Below, piece after piece: positions 6,456-56,669 of a stretch of 64,000 nucleotides of DNA (within the stretch, counting starts at the first letter, position 1; each line of letters opens with the position of its first letter). The position numbers were made by a program, and so were the translations under genes. Below the pieces are notes generated by a model that ran no database searches, was not told the origin of the DNA, and saw only the letters and a list, made by a program, of their open reading frames with translations. The stretch covers positions 24,862-88,861 of the forward strand of contig JAHCJK010000001.1 in the NCBI GenBank assembly GCA_026184295.1, in the 5' to 3' direction. The stretch is from Planctomycetota bacterium (GTDB lineage Bacteria; Planctomycetota; SZUA-567; H5-PLA8).

Positions 6456-6481
6456 CCGGACTCTGGCACGGAGGACTTTTC

Positions 6482-8452
6482 ATGCGCTCCCGCATTCCGC
6501 TCACGCTCTTCGCCGCGCTGCTCTCCACGGCCGTCCTCGCCGCCGACCTGTACTGCGTTCCCGACACGTATAAGTTCCGGCCCGACGGCAGCGTGATCGA
6601 ATTCTCCGGCAAGCCCGCCGGCGCGCTGGCCGACGGCAACACGGTCTGGTCCAAGGCGCAGAAGTCGGTGACGCTGGCCTCGGCGCGCAACGAGACCGCC
6701 GCCTTCCAGGTCGTCGTCGCGGGCGAAGCCAAGGGCGTGCGCCTGGGCGTGAGCGCGCTGAAGGGAGAAGGGGAGTCCGCGATTCCCGCCGCGGGCGTCT
6801 CGGTCTCGCTGATCGCCTTCACGAACACCGTCGCGGCCGACGGCGGAGGCATCTTCGCCGACATCTGCGTGCCGCTCGAAAAACTCGGCGGGGCCTTCGA
6901 CGTGCCCTATTCGGCCAAGGGCCTGCTGGCGCCGCCGGAACAGAAGGTCGGCCTGGCGCTCGTCGAAATATACGTTCCGCCCGGCACCAAGCCCGGCAAG
7001 TACGAAGGCGAACTCTCCGCGAGCGGCGGCGTGGAAGCGAAGATCAAGATCGCCCTGACGGTCTGGCCGATCGACCTGCCGGCGCGCCCGAGCATCATCT
7101 TCGACGTGAACAACTACAGTTCGCCCGTGGCCAGCCTGGGCGTGGCGGACACGCAGAACCCGTACAAGGCGACCGCCAAGGAGACCATCGAGGCCGAACA
7201 CAACTGCTACCGGCTCTTCAACCGTCACCGCATGTACCTGAACATCATGCCCTACCATTCGCAGCGCGGGTATCCGCGCTACGCGCCCATGCTCTCCGGC
7301 AACGGCGCCGAGACCCAGGTGGACTGGAAGCACTTCGACGAACGCTTCGGCCCGGTGCTCTCGGGCGAAATCTTCGACGACAAGGAACCGCCGCCGCACT
7401 TCTACCTGCCCTTCAACCTGCACTGGCCCTACGGCTATTCGCACGACGAAAGCCTGGCCGACAAGCGCCTGAACTTCCGCAAGAACCCCAAGGACTACAA
7501 GGCCACGCTCGTCCCGGCCTACGAGGAAACCTTCAAGGCCGTCTCGAAGCAGTGCGTGGACCACTTCGCCGAAAAGGGCTGGACCAAGACCGGCTTCCAG
7601 GTCTTCCTCAACCACAGCGACCAGGAGAACGCCAACAGCCCCTGGCGCCTGGACGAACCGTACAACAAGTACGGCTTCGCAGTCTTGCAGTGGTACGCCA
7701 AGCTGACCAACCAGCACATGCGCGACAACGACAAGGGCGTGAAGGTGAACTACCGCATCGACATCGGCCACTGGAACTGCCGCGATCCCAAGTGCCAGTG
7801 CTACAAGGCCAAGAACTGGGAACCCGACGACGGCGAGGGCATGCTGGAACCCCACATCGACGCCTGGTACATCGGCGCGGTCCACGCCTACGCGAACAAG
7901 CACCGCTTCGCGGCGCTCAAGGCCAAGGGCCCGGCGCACGAAGTCTTCATCTACGGCGGCGGCGACCGCGTCTCCGGGCCGGCGACGGGCACGCGCGGTT
8001 CGATGTGGACCTTCTACGACATCGGGCTCGACGGCTTCTGCGCCTGGAAGGTCGGCGCCGAACCCGCCTCGGGCGCGGCGCCCGTCAACGGCGGCGACAA
8101 CATGGCCTACAGCGGCGCGCCGCTGGGGATTCCGGAACTCCTCCCGAGCCTGCGCATGAAGATCTTCCGCCGCGGCAGCTACGACGTCGAATACCTCAAG
8201 CTCGCCGCCGCCAAGGACGCCGAAAAGGTCAAGGCGCTCCTGAAGGAGATGATCGAGTACAAGACCAGCCCCGGGAACAAGTACACCGTCGTGGAATTCC
8301 CCAGCCCGAACAACAACCCCGCCGACTACGAGATCGCGCGCCTGGAACTCGCGGGCATCATCCTCGGCATGGACCTCGCCAAGGGCCTCAAGCGCCAGGG
8401 GCGCATCGACGGCCCGCCCGAAGCTTTCGTGGATCAGATTCAGGGCTACTGA
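6482..8452 (+). CDS. Secreted 656-aa hypothetical protein, possibly carbohydrate-active (polysaccharide-processing)
   Basis: Clear signal peptide (MRSRIPLTLFAALLSTAVLAADLY). Long non-degenerate ORF immediately followed by a heparinase-like gene. No family confidently recognised. Confidence 0.5.
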   Translation: MRSRIPLTLFAALLSTAVLAADLYCVPDTYKFRPDGSVIEFSGKPAGALADGNTVWSKAQKSVTLASARNETAAFQVVVAGEAKGVRLGVSALKGEGESAIPAAGVSVSLIAFTNTVAADGGGIFADICVPLEKLGGAFDVPYSAKGLLAPPEQKVGLALVEIYVPPGTKPGKYEGELSASGGVEAKIKIALTVWPIDLPARPSIIFDVNNYSSPVASLGVADTQNPYKATAKETIEAEHNCYRLFNRHRMYLNIMPYHSQRGYPRYAPMLSGNGAETQVDWKHFDERFGPVLSGEIFDDKEPPPHFYLPFNLHWPYGYSHDESLADKRLNFRKNPKDYKATLVPAYEETFKAVSKQCVDHFAEKGWTKTGFQVFLNHSDQENANSPWRLDEPYNKYGFAVLQWYAKLTNQHMRDNDKGVKVNYRIDIGHWNCRDPKCQCYKAKNWEPDDGEGMLEPHIDAWYIGAVHAYANKHRFAALKAKGPAHEVFIYGGGDRVSGPATGTRGSMWTFYDIGLDGFCAWKVGAEPASGAAPVNGGDNMAYSGAPLGIPELLPSLRMKIFRRGSYDVEYLKLAAAKDAEKVKALLKEMIEYKTSPGNKYTVVEFPSPNNNPADYEIARLELAGIILGMDLAKGLKRQGRIDGPPEAFVDQIQGY

Positions 8453-8465
8453 ACAAAGGAGCTGT

Positions 8466-10442
8466 ATGCCGAAGGCATCCCCCGCTGCGCCGCCGACCGT
8501 GAACGCCGCGATCGTCCGCAAGGACCCGCATCCCAAACGGCCGCCCGACCCCGCGGCGCTGGTGCCCTGGACGAACGCGGTCTGCCGGCGCCCGCACGTG
8601 CTGGCCACGCCCGAGGAACTGGACGAACTGCGCAGCCGCCTGGAACGCCCGGTCGAGGCCGAGATGCTCCGCCGCCTGCGCGAACGCGTCGAACTGGGGC
8701 GAACCAAGGACCGCCTGCCCAAAAAGGGCGAGACGATCGCCGACCGGACGTTCACCCAGTGGCAGGGGCCCGCCGCGCTGCTGTACGCGCTCACCGGCGA
8801 CCCGCAGGCGCTTGCCTTTGCCAGGGACGCCACGCTGGCCCTCGCGCGCGCCAACGCCGGCGACGCCTCGCACGATCTCTCCGCCGCGCAGGCGCTGGCC
8901 TCGCTGGCCTGGAGCTACGACCTGCTGCACGATCAGTGGTCGGGGGCCGAACGCCGCGAGATTCTCGATTTCGCGCGGGAGTTCGGAACCGGCTTCTTCT
9001 CGCTCACGGCCACGCCCGTCTGTTACTGGGCCGGCATCCTGCTCCAGAACCACTGCCACGTCGCCTGGACCGGCATCGGGCTGGCCGGGATGGGCTTTTA
9101 CGGCGAGATCGACCAGGCGGCCGAATGGGCGCGCTGGGCGCACCGAACGTATCGCACCATCGCCTGGCTCCAGCCGCCCGACGGCACCAATCTGGAAGGA
9201 CCGAGCTACGGGGCGTACGGCATCGAACGCCGTTTGATGTACTACGAGTCCGCGAAGCGCTGCATCGGCGAGGACCTGTACAACAAGGCCGACGCGCGCG
9301 CGGCGCAGTGGTTCCTGCACCAGACGCTGCCCGATCCCAAGCCCTTCCGCAACGCGCTGCGCTGGGGCGACACGCCCGAACACTTCGACTGGCACGGCCC
9401 CGCGCACAGCCTCTTCGCGCTGGCCAAACGCTTCAAGGACCCCGTGGCCCAGGCGCAGGCGCTGCGCTTCTGGCGGCGCAAGGTCGGCCTCGCCCGCAAC
9501 CTGCTCTTCCTCGACCTGCTCTACTACGATCCCAAGGTGCCGGAGGGGAACCTGGAGGAACAGCCGGGCTCGCGCCATTTCGAAGACCTCGACCTCGTCT
9601 GCGCGCGCTCCTCGTGGAAGGAAGACGCGACGGTCGTCTCGTTCCTCTGCGGTCCGTACCAGGGCCACCGCGTGATGCGCGTGGGCAGCGGCGACCTGGG
9701 CGGCGCGCACTGCCACGCCGACACGGCCTCGCTGCAGGCCTATTCGCGCGGCGAAGTGCTGCTCGCCGATCCCGGCTACGAACACTTCAAGCGCACCGAA
9801 CACCACAACACCGTGCTCGTGGACGGCCACGGGCAACTCGGCGAAGGCACCAAGTGGTTCAACGTGAATCGCGTGCTCCATTTCAACGGCACCGCGGAAG
9901 TGCTCGCGTACCGCGACGAACCCGCCGCCACCGCGTGGGTGGGCGAGGCCGCGCGCATCTATGTCCCCGAGGCCGGGCTGCTGCGCTTCCGCCGCCACGT
10001 CTACTACGCGCGCCCCGACCTGCTCGTCGTCTACGACGATCTGGAAGCGCAGGAACCGCGCGTCTTCACGCAGCTTTGGCACGCGGAATCGGCCTTCGCC
10101 GCGCAGCCGGACGGGCGCTGGGGCTTCGTGCAGGGCGGCGCGGCGCTGAGCCTGCGGGCGCTGGCGGTGGGCGGGCAGGACGGCGATTTGAAGGTGACCG
10201 CGCGCCACCAGGACCTGCCCGACATGAGCGAGCCCGGGCGCTCGCAGTACGAACTGCGCGTGGAGAGCCCGCGGGTGAAGGCCTGGCGCTTCGCCACGGC
10301 CATCGCCTTCGGCGACGCGGCCTCCGGCGTGCCCGGCCTTTCGGCGCACGCGAACGGCGCGGAAGTCTCGATTGAGAGCGGGCCCGGCGCGCCGCGCACG
10401 GTCCGCTTTGCGCTGGACGGAAGCGAAGCGCCGACGGCCTAG
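8466..10442 (+). CDS. Heparinase II/III-like polysaccharide lyase family protein (no signal peptide)
   Basis: C-terminal HHNTVLVDGHGQ motif characteristic of heparinase II/III-like proteins. N-terminal alginate-lyase-like helical region rich in W/A. About 660 aa, as expected for the family. Confidence 0.6.
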   Translation: MPKASPAAPPTVNAAIVRKDPHPKRPPDPAALVPWTNAVCRRPHVLATPEELDELRSRLERPVEAEMLRRLRERVELGRTKDRLPKKGETIADRTFTQWQGPAALLYALTGDPQALAFARDATLALARANAGDASHDLSAAQALASLAWSYDLLHDQWSGAERREILDFAREFGTGFFSLTATPVCYWAGILLQNHCHVAWTGIGLAGMGFYGEIDQAAEWARWAHRTYRTIAWLQPPDGTNLEGPSYGAYGIERRLMYYESAKRCIGEDLYNKADARAAQWFLHQTLPDPKPFRNALRWGDTPEHFDWHGPAHSLFALAKRFKDPVAQAQALRFWRRKVGLARNLLFLDLLYYDPKVPEGNLEEQPGSRHFEDLDLVCARSSWKEDATVVSFLCGPYQGHRVMRVGSGDLGGAHCHADTASLQAYSRGEVLLADPGYEHFKRTEHHNTVLVDGHGQLGEGTKWFNVNRVLHFNGTAEVLAYRDEPAATAWVGEAARIYVPEAGLLRFRRHVYYARPDLLVVYDDLEAQEPRVFTQLWHAESAFAAQPDGRWGFVQGGAALSLRALAVGGQDGDLKVTARHQDLPDMSEPGRSQYELRVESPRVKAWRFATAIAFGDAASGVPGLSAHANGAEVSIESGPGAPRTVRFALDGSEAPTA

Positions 10443-17522: not shown

Positions 17523-18160
17523 AGCCTGCGTCCCACCCCTTTGATCGTGCTGCGCCAGCACGGCCATCCCTTGGGCTTCCTTCGCCAGCGCGTCCCTCCC
17601 TTGGGCTCTCTTCGCCAGCGCGGCCAGCGAGCCGTTGTAGCGCCGGCCTCCGGCCGGCAGTATCGCCGGCGTCCTCGCCGGCCGTTCGAAGGCCCTTTCG
17701 CAGGGCATTCGCCCTGGGCAAGAATCCCTGCCGTTTCCCGCCATCCAGGCTGGCCCGTGGCATGCGCCGTTGTCGTTAGCCGCGTGAGCGGCGTCAGTAT
17801 GTGGCCCAGGACGTAAGTCCTGGGAGTGAGCGCATTCGACGAAGCGAGTCCCGTAGGGACGACAGATCTGTTCCGAGTGCTTCTGCCGCCCCTGCGGGGC
17901 TGCATCGCTGTTAGGCGCTCACTCCCAGGGCTTACGCCCTGGGCCACAAAATGACGCCGCTACGCGGCTATTCATCCAAGAGTAGAGTTGCTCAGCAACA
18001 CCTCCCATGGGCAGACCCACAAACCCGCCAACTACGATAGCCGTCGATGCTGCGCAATCCATTAAATTAATTACGAATATGCGCAGATGGATTCCTGAAA
18101 TCGAGGGGTATCTTTCCTTCATGCGCCCACCGGAACGGGCGCGGGTCCGGGAGATTCGCC

Positions 18161-19012
18161 ATGCACGCCACGCTGGATGCCGCCGGCACGCGCATCGATT
18201 ACCGCATCAACGACCAGACGCCCGCGGGGACCGCGCGCCCCGTGGACGTCCACGCCACGCCCGAGGAACTCGCGCGCTTCGAGGCCGACGGCTACCTCGT
18301 GCGCGAACGGCTCTTCCAGGGCGACGCGCTCGAACATCTGCGCCGCTGCATCGACGAGATCGTGGACGAGGAGTCGCGCCGCGAGGGCTTCCGGATCGGC
18401 ACCGGGCGCGGCTTCGGCGGCGTCTTCATCCGCCGGTTGCTCGACCGGCACGAGGGCCTGCACGTCTTCCTGGCCTGCGACGCGCTGACCTCCGTCGCCC
18501 GCGCGATGCTCGGCCCGCAGGTCTGGATGCGCGACATGGTCGCGCGCGTCAGCTACCCCGGGCAGCCGAACCAGGAGACCGAGTGGCACTGGCACCAGCG
18601 CGTCGTCCCGCAGCCGGTTCCGCCGTGGTTCAGCTTCCCGCACATCGTCGATGCGCTCGTCTACCTCGACGATCTGACCGACGCCACCGGCCCCATCTGC
18701 GTCGTGCCGGGCTCGCACAAACGCATCCACGAAGGGCTCCCGTCGCACGATTTCGCCGACAAGGCCGGCCAGGCCACGCTGCGCCTCCCGGCCGGCAGCG
18801 CGGTCCTGATTCACGGGAACCTGTGGCACCGCGCGATGCCGACGCTCCCGCACGGCACGCGCCGCCGCCTGATCATCGCCGGCTTCGCGCCCACATGGAT
18901 CAAGGCGCCGCCCTTCGACAAGTTGCCCAACCCCGACGGCCTGATGGCGCGCCGCTGCAAGGACGGCAGCGCGGAAGACCGCGAATTGCTGGGGCTGACG
19001 GGATTTTACTAA
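18161..19012 (+). CDS. Phytanoyl-CoA dioxygenase (PhyH) family Fe(II)/2-oxoglutarate-dependent oxygenase
   Basis: His/Asp facial-triad motifs WHWHQ ... HGNLWHRAMPT. Length and order typical of PhyH. Confidence 0.75.
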   Translation: MHATLDAAGTRIDYRINDQTPAGTARPVDVHATPEELARFEADGYLVRERLFQGDALEHLRRCIDEIVDEESRREGFRIGTGRGFGGVFIRRLLDRHEGLHVFLACDALTSVARAMLGPQVWMRDMVARVSYPGQPNQETEWHWHQRVVPQPVPPWFSFPHIVDALVYLDDLTDATGPICVVPGSHKRIHEGLPSHDFADKAGQATLRLPAGSAVLIHGNLWHRAMPTLPHGTRRRLIIAGFAPTWIKAPPFDKLPNPDGLMARRCKDGSAEDRELLGLTGFY

Positions 19013-23317: not shown

Positions 23318-24294
23318 TCAGGCGCGCCCGTGCCAGGCGAGCACGCGCAGCGCGCGCAGGGTATTCCAGCGGCTCGGCCGGCCGACCTCGTCGCCGAGGT
23401 CCACCAGGTTCGTACCTTTGTAGGCGACGTCCAGCGGCCAGCGCCCGTCGGCATCGCGCCGCGCCGCGAGCCCTTTCACGGCTTCGGCGGTGCGTTCGTC
23501 CGGCGGCACGCCCGCGCGGCGCAGGTAGTCGAGCGCGCGCAGCGTGTCGTAGTGCCACCACGCCGGGAAGGCCAGGGCGGTAAACGACGCGCGGCTCTTG
23601 CGGTCCTGCGCGATCGCTTCGCCCGTGGACTTGCGCCGCAGCAGCCGGCGGTCGAGCAAATACGCCTGCCCGCGACGGCGTGCCGCGGCCACCTTCGGAT
23701 CGGGCGCGATGCACTGTTCGTACTCGAGCAGCGCTTCCAGCACGCAGAGGGTGGTGTTGAACGAGCCGCGCGTCGAACCGCGTTCGGCCTCGCAGTTCCA
23801 CCCGCCGTCGGGCAGTTGTTCGGCGAGCAGCCGGTCGACAATCCCGCGGACATCCTGGCCGAAGTACGCGCCCGCCACGGCCACCTGCCCGTTGATGCAG
23901 GGTTCGACCTCGCCCTGAAAGTAGCGGTGGTGCTCGATCTCTTCCGGGCCGGAGCCCATCCATGTCACTCCCGCGCGAACGGCCTCGAGCGCGCGGCGCG
24001 CCGGCGCGGCGGCCTGGTCGAGCCCCAGTTCGCGCAGCAGCCAGAGCGCGTGCATGGTGGAATTCCAGCCGCGGTTCCAGGCCATGCCCGACCAGCTTCC
24101 GTCGGCGCGCCCTGGAGCGCGAGCACGCGCGCGCCCAGCCCTTCGGTGGCCACGCGCGCGCGTTCGGCCGCGACGGCCTCGGCCGGAGCGCCGCCGAGGT
24201 CGCGCAGCGCCTGCCAGCGGATCGCGGGGTCGCCTTCGAGCAGCCAGGCCATCACGGGATGCGTCGTTTCGAGCATGCCGGCATCTTCGCCCAT
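23318..24294 (-). pseudogene. Terpene-cyclase-like / prenyltransferase-alpha-alpha-toroid repeat protein, apparently frameshifted
   Basis: N-terminal part (MAWLLEGDPAIRWQALRDL...LALQGAP) is in the frame of ORF 23965..24294. C-terminal part (DGSWSG...WNCEAERGS...RDADGRWP) is in the frame of ORF 23318..24904. The two frames join near 24100 at a G-run, consistent with a 1-nt indel. Confidence 0.5.
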
Positions 24295-24508
24295 TCGCGC
24301 GCGGTCTCAAGCCCATGCCAGGCCTCTCGCGATTCGGGAATGCGCCGCGCGCCGCTCGACATGAGAACCGTTGAGCGCGTGGGCGTTCGACGGGAGGCAA
24401 GCGGAGGGAGCGTTCGATAGATAAACAAGAGGTGCGCCAGGCGCCGGTGAGGCGCGGGTTAGGGTGCAACCGAACGGGAACGGACGGCCTATAAAAGGAG
24501 AGCCTGCC

Positions 24509-24874
24509 ATGAGTCTGGAAAGCGTAGCCAACCAATTCGTCGCGCTGTGCCGCCAGGGGAAGAATTTCGACGTGATGCGCACGATGTACGATCCGAACAT
24601 CGTCTCGGTCGAGGCCGACGGCGCGGAGACCGCGGGGCAGGGCCCCGTGATCAAGAAGTCCGAAGATTGGGTCTCCGACAAGGAATTCCACGGCGAGACG
24701 GTCGCCGGGCCCTTCTACAACGGCGCGAACCCGGACCAGTTCGCGGTCTACTTCACCCTCGACGTGACCCTGCGGGCCACCGGCCAGCGCATCACGCTCG
24801 ACGAGGTCGGCATCTACACGGTGAAGAACGGCCTGATCACGCGCGAGCAGTTCTTCTACAGCGGCAAGCACTAA
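24509..24874 (+). CDS. SnoaL-like / NTF2-fold small protein
   Basis: 121-aa ORF starting MSLESVANQF with RBS aaaaggagag. NTF2-like length and pattern. The overlapping minus-strand ORF is spurious. Confidence 0.5.
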   Translation: MSLESVANQFVALCRQGKNFDVMRTMYDPNIVSVEADGAETAGQGPVIKKSEDWVSDKEFHGETVAGPFYNGANPDQFAVYFTLDVTLRATGQRITLDEVGIYTVKNGLITREQFFYSGKH

Positions 24875-24958
24875 GCCGGCCGCACGACCCATCGCCAAAC
24901 GCACGGGCCGCGGAGATCTCCGCGGCCCGTGCCGTTTGTGCCGAAATCCGATACGCGT

Positions 24959-26392
24959 CTACGACGAGAGATTGCTGCTCGACCAGTGCTGCACGAACTG
25001 CGCCAGGCCCGGCGCGCGGTTGCCGCGGCTCTGGTGCTTGTGCTTGTACGGCAGCGGCTGGCCCAGAAACGCCTCGATCTTCCCGCGCAGGTCCTTCACC
25101 ACCGCGGGCTGCGCGGCGGCGACGTTCTCGGTCTCGCGCGGGTCCTTGGCCAGATCGTACAGTTCCACGCGCTTGCCCGGTTCCAGGCTGTGCATCGAGA
25201 GCTTGTGCGTCTCGGTGCGGATGAAGACTTCGTCCGACCAGCCGGCGATCACGTGCGGGTACTTGCTCTTCGCGCGCCCTTCCACGATCGGCATCAGGTC
25301 CTGCCCGTCGTACGGTTCCGTGCTTTCCACGCCCAGCAGGTTGCAGACGGTCGGCGCCAGGTCGATGTTCATCGCGAAGGCGTCCTTCGTCTGCCCCGCG
25401 AACGCGCGGTCGGGATGGCGCACGATCATGTTGATGCGGGTGTTGAAGTCCTGCTGCCGCACGGCGCTCTTCCCGAACTGGTCCACGTCGAGCAGTTCGG
25501 TGCCGTGGTCGCTGGTGAAGACCACCACCGTGTCGTCCCAGAGCTTGTGTTCGTCGAGCTTCTGCATGAAGCGCCCGATCCAGCGGTCCACGAACGTGCA
25601 GTAGCCGTAGTAGAGCGCCTTCGTGCGCGCGATCTCGTCCTCGGTGAACTTGAAGCGCTTCTGGAAGAACTGCGGGTACAGGTAATCGACCACGCCGTCC
25701 TTCTTGAAGTACGCGTCGGCGAACGAGGCCGGCGGATCCCAGAACTCGTGCGGCGCGAAGCTTTCGATGTGCAGATAGAACGGTTTCTGCTTCGCGTTGT
25801 CGTCGACCCACTGCATCGCGCTGCGGAAGACGCGCGCCGGGAGGTACTCTTCCTCGCCCGCGCGGTCCATCATGTTCAGGAGGTACTGCGTGTAGCCGCT
25901 GTGGCGCTTGAAGTCGGTCTCGTCGGGATGCATGTAGCGCTTCAGGTCCACCTTGTCGAGCGGCCCGCTGCGCACCCGGTCGGTCTCCTGGCCGCGGATG
26001 TAGTCGTAGCTGGTGAAGCCGCGCGTGAAGTTCATCGTCGGCTTGAATTCGTGGTACAGGTCCGAGACCAGCCCGGTCAGCACGCCGTTGGCGCTCAGGG
26101 TTTCCGCGAGCGTCGTGTATTCGCCGGGGATCGCGTACCAGCCGACCAGGTTCGGCACCGAGCCGCGGTCGTCGATGTCGTGCTGGAACGGGAAGGCGCG
26201 CCGCCCGGTGTAGAAGCCGCGCCGCGACGGGATCGTCGGGTACGCGTCGCCGTACGCGCGGGTAAAGGTGGTGCCTTCGGCGCGCAGGCGGTCCACGTTG
26301 GGCATCGCCACCGGGTCCTTCCAGGTGTGGTCCACCACGTCCGCGCGCAAGGTATCGCAGCAGATCACGACGACGTTCATTTTCTTAGGCAT
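24959..26392 (-). CDS. Sulfatase-family (alkaline-phosphatase superfamily) enzyme with Thr at the formylglycine position
   Basis: N-terminal metal-binding block VVVICCDTLRAD and signature region AYPTIPSRRGFYTGR. Aligned to the canonical C-x-P-x-R, the Cys is replaced by Thr. No signal peptide. Confidence 0.75.
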   Translation of the reverse strand: MPKKMNVVVICCDTLRADVVDHTWKDPVAMPNVDRLRAEGTTFTRAYGDAYPTIPSRRGFYTGRRAFPFQHDIDDRGSVPNLVGWYAIPGEYTTLAETLSANGVLTGLVSDLYHEFKPTMNFTRGFTSYDYIRGQETDRVRSGPLDKVDLKRYMHPDETDFKRHSGYTQYLLNMMDRAGEEEYLPARVFRSAMQWVDDNAKQKPFYLHIESFAPHEFWDPPASFADAYFKKDGVVDYLYPQFFQKRFKFTEDEIARTKALYYGYCTFVDRWIGRFMQKLDEHKLWDDTVVVFTSDHGTELLDVDQFGKSAVRQQDFNTRINMIVRHPDRAFAGQTKDAFAMNIDLAPTVCNLLGVESTEPYDGQDLMPIVEGRAKSKYPHVIAGWSDEVFIRTETHKLSMHSLEPGKRVELYDLAKDPRETENVAAAQPAVVKDLRGKIEAFLGQPLPYKHKHQSRGNRAPGLAQFVQHWSSSNLSS

Positions 26393-26426
26393 GCGTGGGC
26401 TCCCTGTTCCCTTGTTCGATTCGAAA

Positions 26427-27935
26427 TTACGCCTGCGCGCAAAGGCCCAGGCGGGCTTCCTGTTCGGCCGGCGCGCCGACCTGCTTTAAGAAGGCGCGCA
26501 GCCCCTGTGCCAGCCGGTCGGCCTGTTTAGGCTCGTCCGCCAGCACGTTCCTTTCCTGCTTCGGGTCGGCGGCGATGTGCCACAGCGCGTCGCGCGCCGG
26601 CCCGCGCACGTGATCGACGGGAAAGCGCATCCGCTCGCGTTCGAACGGCCCGATGCCCTTCGGCACGATAAAGCGCGGCGGTTCCGCCGAATACCAGTAC
26701 AGCGGCGCGTTGCCGTCCTGCGGCGGCCATTTGCTCAGCGTCCACGCCCCGTCGGTGACGTGGATGCCTTCGCCGTACTTCCCGAAGCAGGCGAAATCCC
26801 GCGTGCGTGCCTCGGACGAACCGAGCGCGCCCATCAGCGAGGTCCCGTGGATTTCGTGGTCGGGCCGCGCCGCGCCCATCGCGTCGAGCACCGTCGGGAA
26901 GTAGTCCACCGGCTGCGCCAGGCACGTCCGGCGGCTGCCCGCCTGCGAGCGGAAATCCGGGTGATAGACGAGCAGCGGGATGTGCGCCATCTCCTGGTAG
27001 AGCGTCGAATCGCCGTGCCCGCTGCCGGGCTTGCCGATCATGCCGTGTTCGCCGAAGAGATGCCCGTGGTCGGTGGTGACGACGATCATCGTGTCGTCCA
27101 TCAGGCCCAGCGTTTCCAGGCGTTCCATGAAGTGCTTGAACCAGCGGTCCACCAGCGTCACCTTGCCGGCGTAAAGCGCGCGGATATCCGCGAGTTCTTC
27201 CGGCGTGTAGCGGTCGGCCTTGCCGTAGATCGGCCAGCGCACGCGTTCCGCGGGCACTTCGCCGTTTGTGTAAAGTGTGTCGTACGGGGCGGGGGGGTCG
27301 AAGGGTTCGTGCGGGTCGAAATGGTCGATGGTGAGGAAGAAGCCTTTCTCGCGCAGTCCGTGGTGGTTGCCCAGCCATTCCGCCGCGGCCGCGAAGGTCT
27401 GCGCCGTAAAGGTGTGGCGTTCGTCCTTCCATTTCCCTTCGGCGTCGCGCCATTTGGCGGTGTTGCGCATGTACTGCGCCCAGCGGAAGTGGCACTTAGT
27501 CTTTTCCGGCGCGGGAAAGCGCGGCGGGATCGTCGGGTCGGCGACCCAGTGGTCGTTTTCCTGGCCGCGGATGAAGTCCCACGAATCGTAGTGGAAGTGG
27601 TAGTTCCCCGAGCCGTTTTCGAAAAGGTGGTAGTGGTCGGTCACCAGCGCGGTGTTCGTGCCGCCCTTCTGCAGGACGCCGGGCAGGTCGTGGTCCCACG
27701 GTTCGAGCGGGCCCCAGCCGCGGAAGGGGAACTCGTAGCGCCCGGTCATGATCTCGCGGCGCGCCGGCATGCAGGGCGAGGACGCCAGGTACGCGTTGTC
27801 GAAGATGACCGAGCGCGACGCGAAGGCATCCAGGTTCGGCGTCTGAATCCAGCCGTTGCCGTAGCAGCCCAGGTGGTCGCGGCGCAGCGTGTCGATGACG
27901 ATCAGGATCGTGTTCACAGGTGGTTTCCCGTTCAA
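26427..27935 (-). CDS. Cys-type sulfatase (arylsulfatase family), no signal peptide
   Basis: ILIVIDTLRRDHLGCYG metal-binding block and canonical signature SPCMPARREIMTGR (C-x-P-x-R). Confidence 0.8.
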   Translation of the reverse strand: MNGKPPVNTILIVIDTLRRDHLGCYGNGWIQTPNLDAFASRSVIFDNAYLASSPCMPARREIMTGRYEFPFRGWGPLEPWDHDLPGVLQKGGTNTALVTDHYHLFENGSGNYHFHYDSWDFIRGQENDHWVADPTIPPRFPAPEKTKCHFRWAQYMRNTAKWRDAEGKWKDERHTFTAQTFAAAAEWLGNHHGLREKGFFLTIDHFDPHEPFDPPAPYDTLYTNGEVPAERVRWPIYGKADRYTPEELADIRALYAGKVTLVDRWFKHFMERLETLGLMDDTMIVVTTDHGHLFGEHGMIGKPGSGHGDSTLYQEMAHIPLLVYHPDFRSQAGSRRTCLAQPVDYFPTVLDAMGAARPDHEIHGTSLMGALGSSEARTRDFACFGKYGEGIHVTDGAWTLSKWPPQDGNAPLYWYSAEPPRFIVPKGIGPFERERMRFPVDHVRGPARDALWHIAADPKQERNVLADEPKQADRLAQGLRAFLKQVGAPAEQEARLGLCAQA

Positions 27936-27939
27936 AAGG

Positions 27940-28599
27940 TCAGCGGAGCATGTCCAGCAGGCGCGTGCGCACCTGGTCGAGGTGCCGTTCGGCGGCCTGG
28001 CGCGCCTGGGCCGGATCGCCGGAGGCCAGCGCGTCGAGCATGTCGTAGTGGGTGACGGCCCATTCGGGCGGTGTCTGGCCCAGGCGGTCTTCGAACGGAT
28101 GGCGCGCCATCTCGCTGCGCACGATCATGCGTCCGCGCTGAATCGTATCGATCAAGGCCTGGCAGCCGCTGGCGTCCACAATCGCGCGGTGGAACTGGCA
28201 GTTCGCCACGCGCGTCTCGTAGTAACGTCCCGCCAGCCGGTGCTCCTTATATTGGTCCGCAAGCGCGCGGAGATTCCGCTCGACCTCGGGGCTCCAGCGC
28301 CGGCAGACCATCTCCGCGGCCAGCCCTTCCAGTTCCTTGCGGACGAGGAAGAGTTCCGCGACTTCCAGCGGCGTGATCTCGCGCACGAACGCCCCGACGT
28401 TGGGAATCAGCTTCACCCAACCCATCTCGGCCAGGCGCGTGAGCGCGTCGCGGAGCGGCGTGCGGCTGACGCCCATGCGTTGCGCGAGCGCCGTCTCGCG
28501 CAGATGCGTGCCCGGCGGCAGCTCGTTCGTGACGATCAGGTCTTCGAGCCGCTCGATCAAAGATTTTGGTTCGGTTTGGACGGGCATTTCTGTTTGCAT
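27940..28599 (-). CDS. GntR-family regulator, FadR/FCD subfamily
   Basis: N-terminal wHTH (ETALAQRMGVSRTPLRDALTRLAEMGWV) and C-terminal FCD-like helical domain. Confidence 0.8.
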   Translation of the reverse strand: MQTEMPVQTEPKSLIERLEDLIVTNELPPGTHLRETALAQRMGVSRTPLRDALTRLAEMGWVKLIPNVGAFVREITPLEVAELFLVRKELEGLAAEMVCRRWSPEVERNLRALADQYKEHRLAGRYYETRVANCQFHRAIVDASGCQALIDTIQRGRMIVRSEMARHPFEDRLGQTPPEWAVTHYDMLDALASGDPAQARQAAERHLDQVRTRLLDMLR

Positions 28600-28792
28600 A
28601 CATATTGTATACAATCCTATAAGACGTTCGGCAACGTGAATTTTTAAATTCTGCTGCGGTTTTTTTAGGCCACGCTTGAACGGAATTTGAACAAATTCTC
28701 ACTCGATGTAGTTGCAAATTAAAATCAAATTGATAGAAGTTCACCCTTGCTAATTGAGAACAATTCGCAACAATACGAGGAGGAAACGGGTC

Positions 28793-30208
28793 ATGCGTTG
28801 GTTCATCGGGGCGATCGTGATGGTCGCGATGGGATCGTTGATGGCAGGCGAAGTGAGCAACGCGGAACTTCTCGCGGAGATCAAGGCGATGCGTGAAGCG
28901 TACGAGGGCCGCATCTCGACGCTGGAATCCACCATCAAGACGCTGCAGGCCGAGAAGGCCGACGGCGCCCGCCGCGTCGATATCAAGAAGGGCATCGACA
29001 AGGCGCTGGGCGAAGACAAGGTCGCGACGGCGGTCGTCGAACGCCCCGGCCCGAAGTCGGCGCTGAGCGGCAACGCGGTGCGCGCGGCGACCAACGTCAC
29101 CCTGGGCGGCTACACCGAATTCAGCTACATCGACCGCGGCGACCGCACCAAGTCCTTCGACCAGACGCGCACGGTGCTGGAAATCGGCGCGCAGGTCCAC
29201 GAACGCATCACCTTCTACACCGAATGGGAGATCGAGCACGGCGCGATCATCGCCGGCGGCGAAGAGAGCGACGGCGAACTGGAACTCGAGCAGGCCTGGG
29301 TCGATTTCAACATCAACGACGCGCTGAATTTCCGCACGGGCATGATTCTGGTCCCGGTCGGCCACTACAACCTGTACCACGAAGGCTGGATCAACAACTT
29401 CGTCGACCGCCCGCTGGTGGACCGCCGCGTGATCGGCACCACCTGGTTCGAGGAAGGCGCCGGTTTCCACGGGCAGGTGCTGGACACCGAGAGCCTGGGC
29501 CTTTCGTACGAAGCCTACGTCTTCAACGCGTCCGACGCGCGCGAAGTCGGCGCCAGCGGCTTCCGCGGCATCCGCCGCGAAGGCAACGGGCCGGTCTACC
29601 GCAACCAGAAGGCCGGCGCGTTTCGCGTCGCGTTCGAACCGGCGCGGTCGCTCAAGCGCTTCGCGGACCAGTTCGAGATCGGCGTCAGCGGCTACATCAG
29701 CGGGTTTAACGGGCTGCGCGAGGACGACGACGCTCCGAAGCTGGGCGGCGACGGCACCGTGCAGATCTTCGCCATCGACGCGACCTACGAGAAGTCTTTC
29801 AAGGAGAAGGGCACGCTGGGCGTGCGCGGCGAAGCCGCCATGGCCCACGTTTCGCCCGGCCGCGAACCCGGCGCGCCCGGCCAGCAGTCCTGGGGCTACT
29901 ACCTCGAAGGCTACTACTCGTTCTGGCCCGGCTTCCTGACGGAGTCGCCGTTCGGGAAGGGCTTCAAGGATCCGCGCCTGGTCTTTGCCGTGCGCTACGA
30001 CTGGGTGGATGCCGACATCGATTCGTTCGACCGCAAGGATCTGAGCCGCACGAGCGTGGGCATCTCGTACCGCCCGACCTCGCGCGTCGTCTACAAGCTG
30101 GATTACCAGATCGACCACGCCGAATCGCGGGACGGCTCGGGCCTCTCGGATTCGGGCGATGGCAGCCGCACCGACGCCTTCCTCTTCGGCGTCGCGCTGG
30201 GCTTTTAA
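28793..30208 (+). CDS. Outer-membrane beta-barrel porin-like protein
   Basis: Signal peptide MRWFIGAIVMVAMGSLMAG after a gaggagg RBS. N-terminal coiled region, then alternating beta-strand-like pattern. C-terminal aromatic residue (…FGVALGF) typical of OM barrels. Confidence 0.6.
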   Translation: MRWFIGAIVMVAMGSLMAGEVSNAELLAEIKAMREAYEGRISTLESTIKTLQAEKADGARRVDIKKGIDKALGEDKVATAVVERPGPKSALSGNAVRAATNVTLGGYTEFSYIDRGDRTKSFDQTRTVLEIGAQVHERITFYTEWEIEHGAIIAGGEESDGELELEQAWVDFNINDALNFRTGMILVPVGHYNLYHEGWINNFVDRPLVDRRVIGTTWFEEGAGFHGQVLDTESLGLSYEAYVFNASDAREVGASGFRGIRREGNGPVYRNQKAGAFRVAFEPARSLKRFADQFEIGVSGYISGFNGLREDDDAPKLGGDGTVQIFAIDATYEKSFKEKGTLGVRGEAAMAHVSPGREPGAPGQQSWGYYLEGYYSFWPGFLTESPFGKGFKDPRLVFAVRYDWVDADIDSFDRKDLSRTSVGISYRPTSRVVYKLDYQIDHAESRDGSGLSDSGDGSRTDAFLFGVALGF

Positions 30209-30273: not shown

Positions 30274-30753
30274 ATGCGCGCGGTTGTAATGGGGATGAAC
30301 GGCATGCGCACGATCCGCGAACTGGCCGGCATGGACTGGGTGCTTCCCGAACTGCACCGGACCTCCCGGCGCAAGCTCTTTGAAAACGCCGAAGGCTGGT
30401 GGATTCTCGGGCAGGACCGCAACGCCTGGGATTACTTCGAAGCCTACAAGCGTTCCATGGCCCCGGTGCAGATCATCAAGCACTGCCGCGAACGCGGCGT
30501 GATCTCGCTGATTACCCCCTGCATCCAGACCGACGGCCGCTTCGAACTCTTCGTCAACGGCGACGTGCACCGCTTCTGCTGCTACCGCTGCGCGTACAAG
30601 CGCGTCTGGGACGGCATGGACGTGCTGCTGCCGCAGCCCGAACATTTCATGATCTACATGATGCTGGATTCCATCGGCTACATCGAAAGCCCGGACGCGC
30701 CGCGCGAACCCGCCCGCGGCCTGCGCCGCCGCGGAGGCCCGAGCGAAGCATGA
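30274..30753 (+). CDS. Hypothetical protein with C-terminal YHS-like Cys motif (HRFCCYRC)
   Basis: 159-aa ORF. Stop overlaps the start of the downstream Rieske gene (ATGA). Confidence 0.45.
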   Translation: MRAVVMGMNGMRTIRELAGMDWVLPELHRTSRRKLFENAEGWWILGQDRNAWDYFEAYKRSMAPVQIIKHCRERGVISLITPCIQTDGRFELFVNGDVHRFCCYRCAYKRVWDGMDVLLPQPEHFMIYMMLDSIGYIESPDAPREPARGLRRRGGPSEA

Positions 30754-31226
30754 ACGACCGGGAGATGTCCCGCCGCGACGTCCTGAACTGGCTGGCCGCC
30801 GCCGCGGCCACCGGCTGGATGCTCGACGCCTGCGCCTGGGGCGAAGAGAAGGACGAGAAGTCCAAGCGTCCGCCCAAGCTCGCCAGCCTGATGGCCCTGC
30901 CCAACGATTCCGCCAAGGGCATCGACGAACCGAAGGTGATCGTCGTCCGCACGGCCAAGGGCGTGGCCGCCTTCCCGCGCGTCTGCACCCACCGCCACCA
31001 GGAACTCGACGTGGACGAGAAGGACGGCTCGATCTACTGCCCGCTGCACGGCAGCCGCTTCAGCCTGGAAGGCAAGCCCACCAACGGTCCGGCTTCCCGC
31101 GCGCTCAAGTGGTACAAGGTGGAACTCGACCAGGACGGCAGCGTGCGCGTGGACACCCGCAAGAACGTGGACGCCGGCGCCTGGGCTCCGCTGCCCGACT
31201 GGGCCAAGCCCAAGTCCGGCAAGTAG
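30750..31226 (+). CDS. Rieske [2Fe-2S] domain protein with Tat-type signal
   Basis: SRRDVLNWLAAAAATG twin-arginine motif. Rieske boxes CTHRHQ and CPLHGSRF. Confidence 0.75.
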   Translation: MNDREMSRRDVLNWLAAAAATGWMLDACAWGEEKDEKSKRPPKLASLMALPNDSAKGIDEPKVIVVRTAKGVAAFPRVCTHRHQELDVDEKDGSIYCPLHGSRFSLEGKPTNGPASRALKWYKVELDQDGSVRVDTRKNVDAGAWAPLPDWAKPKSGK

Positions 31227-33469: not shown

Positions 33470-34096
33470 TCAGGCTTTCCGGGCAAAGTCTTCGCCTTCG
33501 TACACACGCACGGGATTCCCGCGCTCTAGCGTATTGTGGCAGCTCCAGAGGTCCTGGCGGAAGCCCGCGCGGCGTTCGGCATCGCGGGCGGCCAGCGCGT
33601 GGGCCAGCCGCGCCAGCGCCAGGCGCCGGTTCGCATGCTGCGAGCGTTCCTCTCGCGCAAGCACGCTCAGGCCGCTTGGCAGATGCGTGACCCGCACGGC
33701 CGACTCGGTCTTGTTCACGTGCTGCCCGCCGGGTCCCGACGCGCGCAGCGTCTGAAAAGAAAGATCCTTCGGCGACCACGCGAACGCGTCCGGCTCGCGC
33801 AGCGCCTCGACGCCCACGAACCAGTTCTTGCGTTTGTGCCCGGGGCGGAACGGGCTGCGCCCGATCCACTGCACCGTCCCCAGCCAGCCGCGCAGAAACG
33901 TTTCCGCGCCCGGGCTTTCCAGTCCAAAGAGCGCCGAGACCAGCGTTCCCGCGCGCGGCCCCGGCGTCTGTTCGATCGCATCGGCGCGGCAGCCGGCCTG
34001 CGCGGCCTCGTCCGCGAAGAGCCGCGCGATGCGCGGGACCACCCACGCGCACTCGGAAGGCCCGCGCCCCGCGCTGATCTGCACCCAGGTTTTCAC
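33470..34096 (-). CDS. prfH: Peptide chain release factor H (RF-H)
   Basis: GGQ motif in SGPGGQHVNKTESAVR. About 200 aa. GTG start overlaps the upstream rtcB stop (GTGA). Confidence 0.8.
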   Translation of the reverse strand: MKTWVQISAGRGPSECAWVVPRIARLFADEAAQAGCRADAIEQTPGPRAGTLVSALFGLESPGAETFLRGWLGTVQWIGRSPFRPGHKRKNWFVGVEALREPDAFAWSPKDLSFQTLRASGPGGQHVNKTESAVRVTHLPSGLSVLAREERSQHANRRLALARLAHALAARDAERRAGFRQDLWSCHNTLERGNPVRVYEGEDFARKA

Positions 34097-35223
34097 GCGC
34101 CGGCCCTCCGCACCTTGTACGTGATCAGCGGCCGCAGCTTTGCGACCACGCGCACCAGGCCCGCCTCGACCAGGTCGCCCACCACGGCCTCGATCTTCTT
34201 GTACGCCTGCGGGGCTTCCTCGTAGAGCAATTCGCGGTCCTCGCAGATCACGCGGCTCCCAAGCTCGGTGCGCACGAGATCGTCCTCGCCGTAGCGTTCG
34301 CGCAGCCGCGCGCGGCAGTCGCTGCGGTTCCACTTGCGCCCGGCCCCGTGCGCGACGCTGCGCGCGTTGGCCTCCTGCGGCCCGGCCGGTTCCACCAGGT
34401 AGCTGAAACTCCCGCGGTTGCCCGGCACCACCAGCGCGCCCCGATTCGACGGATTCGCGCCCTTGCGGTGAATCCAGGCCGCGCATCCGCCGAGGGTTTC
34501 GCGCGCGACGAAGTTGTGCGGCAGGTCCAGCGCCACGCGCGCCTCCGAACCCAGCGCATGCAGGAACCGCCACGCGATCAGCGCGCGGCTGGCCTGCGCC
34601 CAAGCCACGGCGTGATCGTGCCGCGCAATGTACGCGCGCGCGTCGTCGCCCGCCGCGTCCAGCCCGGCGTAACCGTGATTCGCCATGTGCCCGGCCAGGA
34701 CCTCGCGGCCGAGTCCGCGGGAACCGCTGTGCACCAGCAGGACCAGACGGTCCTCGTCGAGCCCCAGCGCGGCGAAGGCGGCGCGGTCTTCGACGTCCTC
34801 CACCTGCTGGAGTTCCGCGAAGTGATTGCCGCCGCCGATGGTCCCGAGCGATTCGTCCTGATCGCCCGGGGCGAGGTCAAACTGCGCGAGCCACCCGGCG
34901 CGGTCGCCGTCCCAAGGGCGGTCGAGGTCCACGAGCCGGCGTTCCCAGCGCTCGAACTTCGGCTTGCGCGCGCTCAGGTCCGAGGCCCACAGGCCCATCC
35001 CGCAGCCGACGTCATTGCCGATCAGGTGCGGATACAGCGTGTCCTCCGTGACGAACGCCGCGCCCACCGGGCCGCTCTTGCCCGGATGCAAATCCGGCAG
35101 GCCCACCGCCAGGCGCATGCCCGGCAGCGCGGCCGTGCCACGCAGTTGCGCGAGCGCGTTGCCTTCGATCCAATTCTTCTCCGATGCGAACACGCGAACG
35201 TTTCCAGCGTTCAGGTCGGTCAT
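34093..35223 (-). CDS. rtcB: RtcB-family RNA ligase (RtcB2 type, paired with prfH)
   Basis: RtcB motifs (PDLHPGKSGPVGAAF, GNDVGCGMG, HNAGR-like HGAGRKW). Start at MTDLNAG with upstream ggaggtgg RBS. Confidence 0.85.
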   Translation of the reverse strand: MTDLNAGNVRVFASEKNWIEGNALAQLRGTAALPGMRLAVGLPDLHPGKSGPVGAAFVTEDTLYPHLIGNDVGCGMGLWASDLSARKPKFERWERRLVDLDRPWDGDRAGWLAQFDLAPGDQDESLGTIGGGNHFAELQQVEDVEDRAAFAALGLDEDRLVLLVHSGSRGLGREVLAGHMANHGYAGLDAAGDDARAYIARHDHAVAWAQASRALIAWRFLHALGSEARVALDLPHNFVARETLGGCAAWIHRKGANPSNRGALVVPGNRGSFSYLVEPAGPQEANARSVAHGAGRKWNRSDCRARLRERYGEDDLVRTELGSRVICEDRELLYEEAPQAYKKIEAVVGDLVEAGLVRVVAKLRPLITYKVRRAGA

Positions 35224-35562
35224 ACCACCTCCGGAAGTTCCCGTCGAAAACGGGATCACAAAGCCCCTGCGCCGCATGCCGGGCGGCATGCGTGCACGGT
35301 CAGGCCGAAGGCGCGCGGCGCGAACATGCGCAGGCATGACGCGGCGCGGCAGGGGCCGGACGGCTGTTAGATTTGGAGTGGGGAAGGGACCGAAGGCGGG
35401 ACTACGGGAGGCCTCGGCGTGGCCGAGGGTCAGCGACCGGCGAAGAACTTACGCGGCGAAGCCCGGCGTCTCCATCTTCAGCACCTGGTTCGTCGTGGTT
35501 CGCGGCATCTTCGTTCCTCCAAGGATGGACTCGGGGCAAATAACCCGATGAATCCAGGCTTG

Positions 35563-43988: not shown

Positions 43989-44885
43989 CTACATCGCCAT
44001 CGCCGGCTTCGGCTTCACGCGATGCATCTGCTTACCCTTGCCGTCCACGTGGGCCTTCTTCCAGCGCGACACCCAATCCTCGTAGTCGCGGGTCACGCTG
44101 TTCGGCGCGGCCTTGCTGCGCACGGGAAAGTCCGGGTGGAACGGACGGCCGGTCGGCGTGCCCGTGCGCTGGTAGCGCAGGTCGATCGTCCAGCGCACCT
44201 GCTCGCTCAGGTTCGGTTGGCCGCGGTGCGGGGTGTACTTGGTCATGAAGACCACGCCGCCGCGCGGGCATTCGGCGCAGAGCGGCTCGGTCTTGGGCAG
44301 CAGGTCGGGGCGAATGGTCGTGCCGCCTTCGGCGACGTGTTCCAGGTGGCCGAGCTTGTGCGCGCCGGGGATCACTTCCATGCAGCCGGTTTGCCTGGTC
44401 GCGTGAATGAGCGGGATCCAGCAGGTGACGATGTCGCTCGAATCGGCCTCTTCCAGCGTGACGCCGGCGTCCTGGTGCCACGGCACGAGACCGTGCTTGC
44501 CGCCGTCCTTGCCGCCCGGCATGCGCGCGCGCAGGTGCTGGATCGGGCTGCACGTCAGTTCCGGTCCGATCAGGCTTTCGACCGCGTCGAGCAAATTATC
44601 GTTGTGGAGGAAGCCGAACATCTGCTTGCCGAGCAAACTCATGATGTCGATGCCGCGTTCGATCTCGGGGCATTGTTCGAAGAGCAACCCGATGCGCTTG
44701 TCGAAGGGCGCGTCCTCGTGCAGGTCCTTGATCTTGCCTTCGGCCTGGAGCTCGCGCGCGCGGCGGTCGATGTAGGCGCTCGTCTCGGCCTCGACGCCCG
44801 CGAAGTCGGCCTCCGTCAGCACGTTCTTGGCGATCAGGACGCCGTTTTCCCGAAACTCCCCCACCTGCTGCGCGCTCAGAAACAT
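43989..44885 (-). CDS. Phytanoyl-CoA dioxygenase (PhyH) family oxygenase
   Basis: PWHQD ... GAH ... HRG motifs in PhyH order. 298 aa. Confidence 0.75.
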   Translation of the reverse strand: MFLSAQQVGEFRENGVLIAKNVLTEADFAGVEAETSAYIDRRARELQAEGKIKDLHEDAPFDKRIGLLFEQCPEIERGIDIMSLLGKQMFGFLHNDNLLDAVESLIGPELTCSPIQHLRARMPGGKDGGKHGLVPWHQDAGVTLEEADSSDIVTCWIPLIHATRQTGCMEVIPGAHKLGHLEHVAEGGTTIRPDLLPKTEPLCAECPRGGVVFMTKYTPHRGQPNLSEQVRWTIDLRYQRTGTPTGRPFHPDFPVRSKAAPNSVTRDYEDWVSRWKKAHVDGKGKQMHRVKPKPAMAM

Positions 44886-45023
44886 GGTCGCTCGTCTCCC
44901 GGTTCCCTGGGCGAACCCCTGGGCTCGCCTTGCATGGTATGGACAATACGTGCTTAGAACGCCTTAAACAATGGACACAAACGCCTGTGTTTTGTACTAT
45001 TTATCCCAAGCGAGGGGTTTCGT

Positions 45024-56626: not shown

Positions 56627-56669
56627 GACCGGCTCCTTTCGAAGGTTTCCGCCCCGTCATCCCCCGGAA

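Follow-up and report, generated by a model that had tools for sequence, protein, structure and literature searches.

A pair of adjacent sulfatase-family genes, termed sulfA and sulfB here, raises the question of what a protein with a sulfatase fold does when threonine occupies the position of the cysteine that is otherwise matured to formylglycine (FGly). The genes lie in a 64,000-nt stretch of contig JAHCJK010000001.1 from a Planctomycetota bacterium (GenBank assembly GCA_026184295.1), which in its entirety is referred to as the window and has a GC content of roughly 67%. Our favoured answer, held with moderate confidence, is that SulfA would be an active, maturase-independent enzyme with a threonine nucleophile, encoded in one operon with SulfB, and that it would carry out phosphoryl or phosphonyl rather than sulfuryl chemistry. 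The features on which the argument turns are the following.

24959-26392, minus strand: SulfA, 477 aa, predicted cytoplasmic protein with an S1 sulfatase fold and Thr53 in PTIPSRR
26427-27935, minus strand: SulfB, 502 aa, predicted cytoplasmic Cys-type protein resembling sulfatases and phosphonate monoester hydrolases (PMHs), C55 in PCMPARR
27940-28599, minus strand: GntR/FCD regulator, ATG at 28599, first gene of the predicted gntR-sulfB-sulfA operon
28594-28614, strand not assigned: candidate GntR operator, a palindrome pair at the gntR start

The original prediction had placed two neighbouring sulfatase-family genes here, and both open reading frames (ORFs) were recovered on the minus strand, each with a match to PF00884 (SulfA, E 8e-36, 124 bits, from residue 6; SulfB, E 1.5e-37, 130 bits, from residue 8). 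The C-terminal subdomain PF16347 (cut-off 29.3) was matched above threshold by SulfA at 51.4 bits and below it by SulfB at 24.6 bits. The active-site motif of SulfA reads YPTIPSRR, with T53 encoded by ACG, and that of SulfB reads SPCMPARR, the canonical C-x-P-x-R that had been proposed for it, with C55 encoded by TGC. In phmmer alignments (HMMER) T53 fell on the FGly position of 4uph, 7stt and 2w8s. Alignment of the family profile to the arylsulfatase of E. faecium (EfAS, 9koq) placed T53 on C61, D13 on D20, D295-H296 on D311-H312, H215 on H220 and K308 on K324. C61 of EfAS is the FGly residue by experiment, and the roles of the EfAS residues aligned to the active-site residues of SulfA are described in the same study (PMC12421950). 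BLASTP of SulfA against SulfB (29% identity, E 8e-47) set T53 opposite C55, so the manual alignment behind the proposed Thr-for-Cys exchange, which had been offered with the caveat that it might be off by one residue, stands. A sequencing error or a shifted alignment was rejected, as the step from ACG to TGC takes two base changes and the threonine is invariant in the family. Nor is the serine of the motif the nucleophile, since S56 occupies a variable position in the SulfA family (S, M, V, A and others). The predicted metal ligands of SulfA are D13, T53, D295 and H296, with R57, H114, H215 and K308 as further active-site residues, and in the AlphaFold2 model (pLDDT 94.3) T53 is located at the N-terminus of helix 54-62.

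Both proteins had been predicted to lack a signal peptide, and this was borne out. Neither ORF can be extended upstream, as each opens at the first start codon past a stop. The first beta-strand, which bears the metal-binding Asp, begins at residues 6-13. With the domain starting this close to the N-terminus a signal peptide could not be accommodated, and hidden leaders or upstream starts were rejected for want of any possible upstream start codon.

Relative to the S1 sulfatases of SulfAtlas, SulfA shares the Pfam domains, the fold, the string x-P-x-R-x-x-x-x-T-G, and the equivalents of the metal ligands Asp13, Asp317 and Asn/His318 of P. aeruginosa AtsA and of His211 (H215) and Lys375 (K308). 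D13, D295, H296, H215 and K308 are invariant in the SulfA family and common to the SulfB family. The SulfB motif PCMPARREIMTG agrees with the signature [CS]-x-[PA]-x-R and with the quoted portion of the updated SulfAtlas catalytic pattern. The SulfA motif PTIPSRRGFYTG departs from the signature, with Thr at [CS] and with Ile at +1, which is absent from the set given for that position in the portion quoted. The second S1 signature, G-Y-x-[TS]-x3-G-K-x-[WY]-H, was found in neither protein, whether taken as PS00149 or as the updated pattern. Its Lys and final His correspond to Lys113 and His115 of AtsA. Both SulfA and SulfB carry S/T-D-x-Y-H in this place, so that Asp (Asp111 in SulfA) stands where Lys stands classically. 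The SulfAtlas paper reports Ser112/Asp113 in 87 of 4058 S1 sequences (PMC5066984), a minority to which SulfB probably belongs.

Conservation of the threonine was evaluated at two depths. Among the 120 best matches to SulfA, 118 were full-length and 39-82% identical to it; T53 was present in all 118, as were D13, R16, R57, D111, H114, K117, R124, R133, R177, H215, R256, D295, H296 and K308. A profile search was then run against 1.84 billion cluster representatives and the best 150 matches at 50% clustering were taken. Position 53 was covered by 138 of these, the remainder being fragments, and was Thr in 135 and Cys in 3, the latter being SulfB-like sequences with PCMPAR. D13, R57, H215, D295, H296 and K308 were kept in nearly all of these representatives; conservation of H114, invariant in the 118, did not extend to the Thr-type representatives at greater distance. 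By these alignments, Thr at the nucleophile position of SulfA defines a large family and is no accident. The literature on T-x-P-x-R motifs, Thr-type sulfatases and sulfatases of Poribacteria and Planctomycetes yielded no description of such a clade.

The clade appears from its N-termini to have both cytoplasmic and exported members. No leader was found in 94 of the 119 full-length Thr-type representatives, and the other 25 carry at least 30 additional residues, with a twin-arginine motif in 24 of them. About a fifth of the divergent representatives thus have twin-arginine translocation (Tat) leaders, examples being P0262, P0271, P0276, P0301, P0318 and P0323. The twin-arginine motifs mean that these members leave the cytoplasm already folded, as metal-loaded phosphatases usually do, which agrees with the favoured reading. 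The surroundings of the Tat-exported member P0262 were uninformative.

A scan of a one-genome-per-species collection returned 351 loci encoding a member of the clade, which had been overlooked earlier, and neighbourhoods were counted in the best 80. Uncultured Planctomycetota, Poribacteria and Chloroflexota account for most of the genomes, Latescibacterota and Lentisphaerae for a smaller share. Nearly all of the best 80 are metagenome-assembled genomes (MAGs), from Planctomycetota, Poribacteria, Chloroflexota, Lentisphaerae, Latescibacterota, Armatimonadota, Bacillota and Spirochaetia. Annotation is generic throughout ("sulfatase" or "arylsulfatase A-like enzyme"), and the database record of the exact SulfA protein reads "MAG: sulfatase"; a look-up of the SulfA sequence in a contig index gave no match. 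The gene usually occurs without a Cys-type partner, and 64 of the 80 loci have no PF00884 neighbour within 10 kb. Synteny was lineage-internal, with SnoaL, PCMT, M3 peptidase and type ISP restriction-modification genes in Poribacteria and PMT-like, GT2, DegT and MR/MLE genes in Chloroflexota. In one 3.6-Mb genome (locus L010, 7054-13706) the Thr-type gene belongs to an operon of tightly overlapping genes that also encodes an NTP_transf_3 nucleotidyltransferase, a HAD phosphatase, an ADSL-like protein of the fumarate-lyase family and two hypothetical proteins. This perhaps indicates a pathway for phospho- or nucleotide-activated small molecules. Two loci, L052 (12482-14017, minus strand) and L078 (8640-10004, plus strand), hold paired, different Thr-type genes (FPTIPHR and FPTIPCR) beside classical CxPxR sulfatase genes.

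These distributions bear on the idea that SulfA is a non-catalytic paralogue, for instance a substrate-binding or regulatory subunit in a heteromer with SulfB; the original prediction had likewise listed an inactive paralogue among its options. Such a role would suit the adjacency of sulfA to its Cys-type paralogue and their co-transcription, predicted from gene order, in six genomes, and obligate oligomers occur among its relatives, PMHs and EfAS being examples (PMC12421950). It is nevertheless improbable. Across at least 135 divergent clusters there is no variation in the metal ligands or in Thr, Arg, His and Lys, and pseudoenzymes normally lose such residues; most loci lack a PF00884 neighbour, and 25 clade members are exported alone. 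Since all catalytic residues save the FGly-precursor Cys are kept, a pseudoenzyme is unlikely.

The family of SulfB is larger than that of SulfA (4053 matches at E<=1e-20), and C55 is invariant in 118 of 118 SulfB homologues, within PCMPARR. Identity is 39-90% inside each family and 26-37% between them, which on these alignments would make the two coherent, separate sister groups. Approximately 47 invariant residues are common to both, including the motifs D-T/S-x-R-x-D, P-[T/C]-x-P-x-R-R, D-x-Y-H, R-G-Q-E-x-D, P-H-E-x-x-D-P-P, D-H-G and G-K, and both have Ser/Thr-Asp at the classical Gly112-Lys113. Nine columns discriminate between the families, and the T/C exchange at 53 is the sole one at a catalytic position. 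SulfB is presumably FGly-dependent, and its C55 would be converted by a formylglycine-generating enzyme (FGE) or an anaerobic sulfatase-maturating enzyme (anSME) encoded elsewhere in the genome. As the original prediction had noted, neither is visible in the 64-kb window: searches for their motifs in all six frames gave nothing in real reading frames, and 47 candidate genes or ORFs across the window, scanned with Pfam, included no FGE or anSME. The factual side of the original prediction thus stands in full.

The closest known systems were then compared. Foldseek against the Protein Data Bank (PDB) gave for SulfA a top 50 made up entirely of FGly sulfatases or PMHs (4uph, 2vqr, 2w8s and 9koq included), at roughly 20% identity and a TM score of about 0.7. 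The PMHs and promiscuous arylsulfatases, namely RlPMH (2vqr), BcPMH (2w8s), A. radiobacter PMH (4uph), SpAS2 (4upl) and EfAS (9koq), rank with the best matches of SulfA and SulfB in sequence and fold, the best PDB matches of SulfB being the PMH 4uph and others; they are cytoplasmic too, and are alike in their N- and C-terminal subdomains. As predicted for SulfA, their metal site is of the Asp/nucleophile/Asp-His type and not Asp-Asn (PMC12421950). In contrast to SulfA with its invariant Thr, however, this group uses FGly derived from Cys, and identity is only about 20-22%. No curated NCBIfam equivalog takes in SulfA or SulfB; for PehA (NF045661) they reached 129.8 and 134.6 bits, respectively, against a cut-off of 900. 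By these scores both are relatives of the PehA phosphonate monoester hydrolase and do not belong to it.

The nucleophile itself finds its counterpart in LtaS, EptA/MCR-1 and YejM, which have a Thr nucleophile at a helix N-terminus, a metal site of an acidic residue, Thr and Asp-His, and independence of a maturase, features that are predicted for SulfA as well. In LtaS and MCR-1 the sites are composed of Glu, Thr, Asp and His, with Thr as the phosphoryl acceptor (E255/T300/D475/H476 in LtaS; PMC7576196). By sequence, D13/T53/D295/H296 of SulfA match this site in composition. These enzymes differ from SulfA in their T-x-N-x-E-type motifs, in N-terminal membrane domains, in acting outside the cytoplasm and in being without the sulfatase C-terminal subdomain. 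In the nucleotide pyrophosphatase/phosphodiesterases (NPPs, PF01663) the nucleophile is likewise Thr and the metal motif D-H-G, and SulfA gave a local Pfam match to them over residues 267-316 (44 bits). This match spans only some 50 residues around DHG, however, while the overall fold matches of SulfA are sulfatases. NPPs moreover contain a binuclear Zn site and a motif of the type T-F-P-N-H.

The likeness to LtaS opens the possibility that SulfA is a transferase that passes a Thr-bound phospho-alcohol group to an acceptor, as LtaS, EptA and OpgB do, but in the cytoplasm. The composition of nucleophile and metal site would agree with this, as would glycosyltransferase, PMT-like, DegT or nucleotidyltransferase genes beside some relatives in Chloroflexota and other lineages. 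Those neighbourhoods are not conserved across lineages, however, and SulfA is without the N-terminal multi-pass membrane domain of LtaS and EptA, as its catalytic domain begins at residue 6. NCBIfam scores are far from the cut-offs (LtaS, 25.8 bits against 970; YejM, 23.6 against 825), and neither LtaS, EptA, MCR-1 nor an NPP is among the 50 best PDB fold matches. We therefore assign the transferase a low probability.

Mechanistic considerations lead back to the favoured reading of SulfA as a Thr-nucleophile enzyme. In FGly enzymes elimination of the covalent intermediate proceeds from the second hydroxyl of the hydrated aldehyde and is assisted by His115, as stated in the SulfAtlas paper (PMC5066984). 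A Thr ester cannot use this hemiacetal elimination, and phosphoryl or phosphonyl transfer is therefore favoured over desulfation. Deprived of the elimination route, such an ester needs attack at the transferred group. Attack of this kind is normal for phosphoryl groups. For sulfuryl groups it leads to a trapped enzyme: FGly-to-Ser mutants of human arylsulfatases, on which Recksiek et al. worked in 1998, reportedly end in a dead-end sulfo-enzyme. In the proposed mechanism the metal-bound Thr53 alkoxide would attack the substrate directly, giving a covalent Thr ester that would then be released by water or an acceptor, as in NPP, LtaS, EptA and MCR-1. SulfA would require no maturase, and its favoured substrates would be a phosphate mono- or diester or a phosphonate monoester. 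A Thr-nucleophile hydrolase (or transferase) acting on phosphorus esters accordingly appears most likely, ahead of a sulfatase, with a non-catalytic partner last.

Several observations weigh against this reading. R57 and H114, which serve the aldehyde hydrate in FGly enzymes, are kept in SulfA, and a simple Thr-alkoxide mechanism leaves their retention unexplained. A mononuclear site offers no obvious activation of water for hydrolysis of phospho-Thr; one may speculate that D111, H114 and H215 provide a second metal site, but H114 is not kept throughout the clade. The phosphorus-type substrate class is derived from the mechanism, and the only hints to phosphorus compounds are this argument and a sub-threshold PhnR-like score of the regulator, a similarity weak enough to serve as a lead only. 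All-against-all clustering of ORFs from the 80 loci returned no partner shared across phyla, and hence no common theme. In 16 of the 80 loci another PF00884 gene, mostly a classical CxPxR sulfatase, lies within 10 kb, and some contexts of the Thr-type gene, including one in Lentisphaerae, are polysaccharide-degrading; both fit sulfated substrates. The neighbouring porin, finally, lies outside the operon and its Porin_O_P match is weak.

Retention of R57 and H114, together with the classical sulfatase genes near 16 of 80 relatives, thus keeps a second reading alive, in which SulfA is a genuine sulfatase that acts with SulfB via Thr itself or via an oxidised Thr, the keto analogue of FGly. The S1 fold, xPxR, R57, H114, H215 and K308 are all retained, and the polysaccharide-degrading context in Lentisphaerae would suit it. 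So would a gene directly upstream of the Thr-type gene in one Poribacteria genome, which encodes a radical SAM protein with a B12-binding domain. On the other hand, oxidation of Thr yields a ketone and not FGly, and no such conversion has been demonstrated according to the SulfAtlas authors (PMC5066984). Their paper rejects Thr-bearing PF00884 proteins of the LtaS-like T-x-N-x-E type as sulfatases. In addition, the sulfate-binding Lys113 of classical sulfatases is replaced by Asp in both families, and the radical SAM neighbour is found in only one of the 80 loci. A sulfatase function of SulfA is therefore judged unlikely. The broader proposal that the whole Thr clade consists of true FGly-independent sulfatases, using Thr or a Thr-derived keto residue made by a putative maturase such as this B12-radical SAM enzyme, is highly improbable; if true, it would overturn the general requirement of S1-fold sulfatases for FGly. 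The Poribacteria locus itself (L004, 8329-9837, corresponding to L037, 8281-9840) is that of a MAG in which the B12-binding radical SAM protein of 502 aa is accompanied by a truncated sulfatase fragment. Being present beside the Thr-type gene in a single locus of 80, the B12-radical SAM protein was rejected as a general maturase.

The arrangement of the genes next to sulfA was examined with respect to regulation. The regulator at 27940-28599 has both a GntR winged helix (PF00392, 61.9 bits) and an FCD domain (PF07729, 78.8 bits), in agreement with its original assignment, and its best NCBIfam match, phnR_burk (TIGR03338), reached 106.7 bits, under the cut-off of 271.5. The genes are spaced head to tail, with 4 nt between the gntR stop and the sulfB start and 34 nt between sulfB and sulfA, the latter spacer containing a GGGAG ribosome-binding site ahead of sulfA. 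The longest ORF of SulfB begins with TTG, but translation could instead begin from a GTG at 27917. The order gntR-sulfB-sulfA is found in six Planctomycetota MAG species, the window genome and five others (L011-L015), in which the SulfA orthologues are 64-69% identical and the flanking genes differ. Gene order, gaps, the ribosome-binding site and conservation together predict a three-gene operon.

A perfect palindrome, TTGTATACAA, occurs at 28605-28614 as the single perfect copy in the window, and a degenerate copy, TTGCATACAT, lies beside it at 28594-28603; the pair directly precedes gntR. With a degenerate neighbour, TTGTATACAA recurs 5-6 nt ahead of gntR in all loci that have the order gntR-sulfB-sulfA (L001, 7711-7720; L002; L011-L015). 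It is absent from the loci that contain the neighbouring porin genes and no gntR. It is a plausible candidate for a FadR/GntR-type autoregulatory operator, through which the operon would be regulated by its own first gene product. A scan for promoters and terminators gave matches no more frequent than in shuffled sequence.

Divergently from gntR a second set of genes is encoded.

28793-30208, plus strand: porin-like outer-membrane protein with a signal-like N-terminal segment, preceded by a ribosome-binding site and opening with ATG, divergent from gntR
30304-30753, plus strand: Cys-rich protein, 149 aa, part of the porin module and outside the sulfatase operon
30750-31226, plus strand: Rieske [2Fe-2S] protein (PF00355) with the twin-arginine leader MNDREMSRRDVL, conserved in L011, L013-L015 and L092-L094

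The predicted start of the porin was borne out, but its match to PF07396 (OprO/P) is weak, scoring 27.2 bits where the threshold is 20.9, and covers only positions 21-142 of the 370 in the profile; in relatives the match is also faint or weak. The Cys-rich protein has no Pfam family and only four homologues in a large protein database. In the alignment of five orthologues C83, C102, C103 and C106 are invariant (numbered by the 159-aa ORF), and the C-terminal half (TPC...FCCYxCA) presumably recalls a metal-binding motif of the YHS/TRASH type. The start of the Rieske gene overlaps the stop of the Cys-rich protein gene.

It had been proposed that the porin, the regulator and the two sulfatases form a single unit that imports and desulfates a small sulfated compound. 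The six genes are indeed adjacent and divergent in the window and, with the trio beside the sulfatase operon, in 4 of 5 related MAG species, and OprO/P, the family matched by the porin, is anion-selective. In the fifth (L012), however, no trio gene lies within 10 kb, and two further loci carry the trio without the sulfatase operon (L092, 4364-6838; L093, 8461-10935), the divergent position being held by another gene. In L094 the trio (32-2105) is followed by the same right flank as in the window, consisting of genes for a CBM96 protein, an aminotransferase, a 2-hydroxyacid dehydrogenase, PhyH and AraC. Because the trio occurs without the sulfatase operon the porin is regarded as a separate module, and by this gene order the porin, Cys-rich and Rieske genes would be a conserved module independent of gntR-sulfB-sulfA. 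The palindrome moreover abuts gntR and is missing where only the trio is present, no gene of the block encodes an inner-membrane transporter, a sulfated substrate is not specifically indicated by any of the evidence, and SulfA is unlikely to desulfate. We consider an uptake-and-desulfation unit unsupported and quite unlikely.

Several further features of the window were noticed. A SnoaL-like protein of 136 aa is encoded at 24464-24874 (plus strand), convergent with sulfA and outside the block conserved in related genomes, and a long ORF overlapping it (23318-24904, minus strand) has no Pfam match and is probably coding only in part. An ORF with the release-factor GGQ motif (PrfH-like; 33470-34603, minus strand) lies next to and partly overlaps an ORF for an RtcB RNA ligase (34093-35448, minus strand), which looks like the known rtcB-prfH pairing. 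At 6341-10442 (plus strand) GH123-N-like and heparinase II/III-like proteins are encoded side by side, flanked by regulators of the GntR/periplasmic-binding type. Three genes for PhyH-family dioxygenases and two for FG-GAP/ASPIC proteins are dispersed through the window (18071-19012, 43989-44963, 55889-56656).

Taken as a whole, SulfA is probably a new variant within the sulfatase-fold enzymes, paired with a Cys-type sister in one predicted, regulated operon, rather than a new system. Textbooks cite the alkaline-phosphatase superfamily for the way in which a switch of nucleophile among Ser, Thr and FGly accompanies a switch of reaction. A Thr clade that keeps the scaffold and motif of FGly enzymes and stands beside a Cys-type sister would constitute a natural experiment on such a switch. 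The clade is large, comprising no fewer than 135 clusters at 50% identity, and it gave 351 matches when one genome per species was scanned. If the members of the clade are phospho-esterases, the sulfatase counts from which degradation of sulfated glycans is gauged in these phyla would be inflated, and a route of organophosphorus turnover would have been overlooked.

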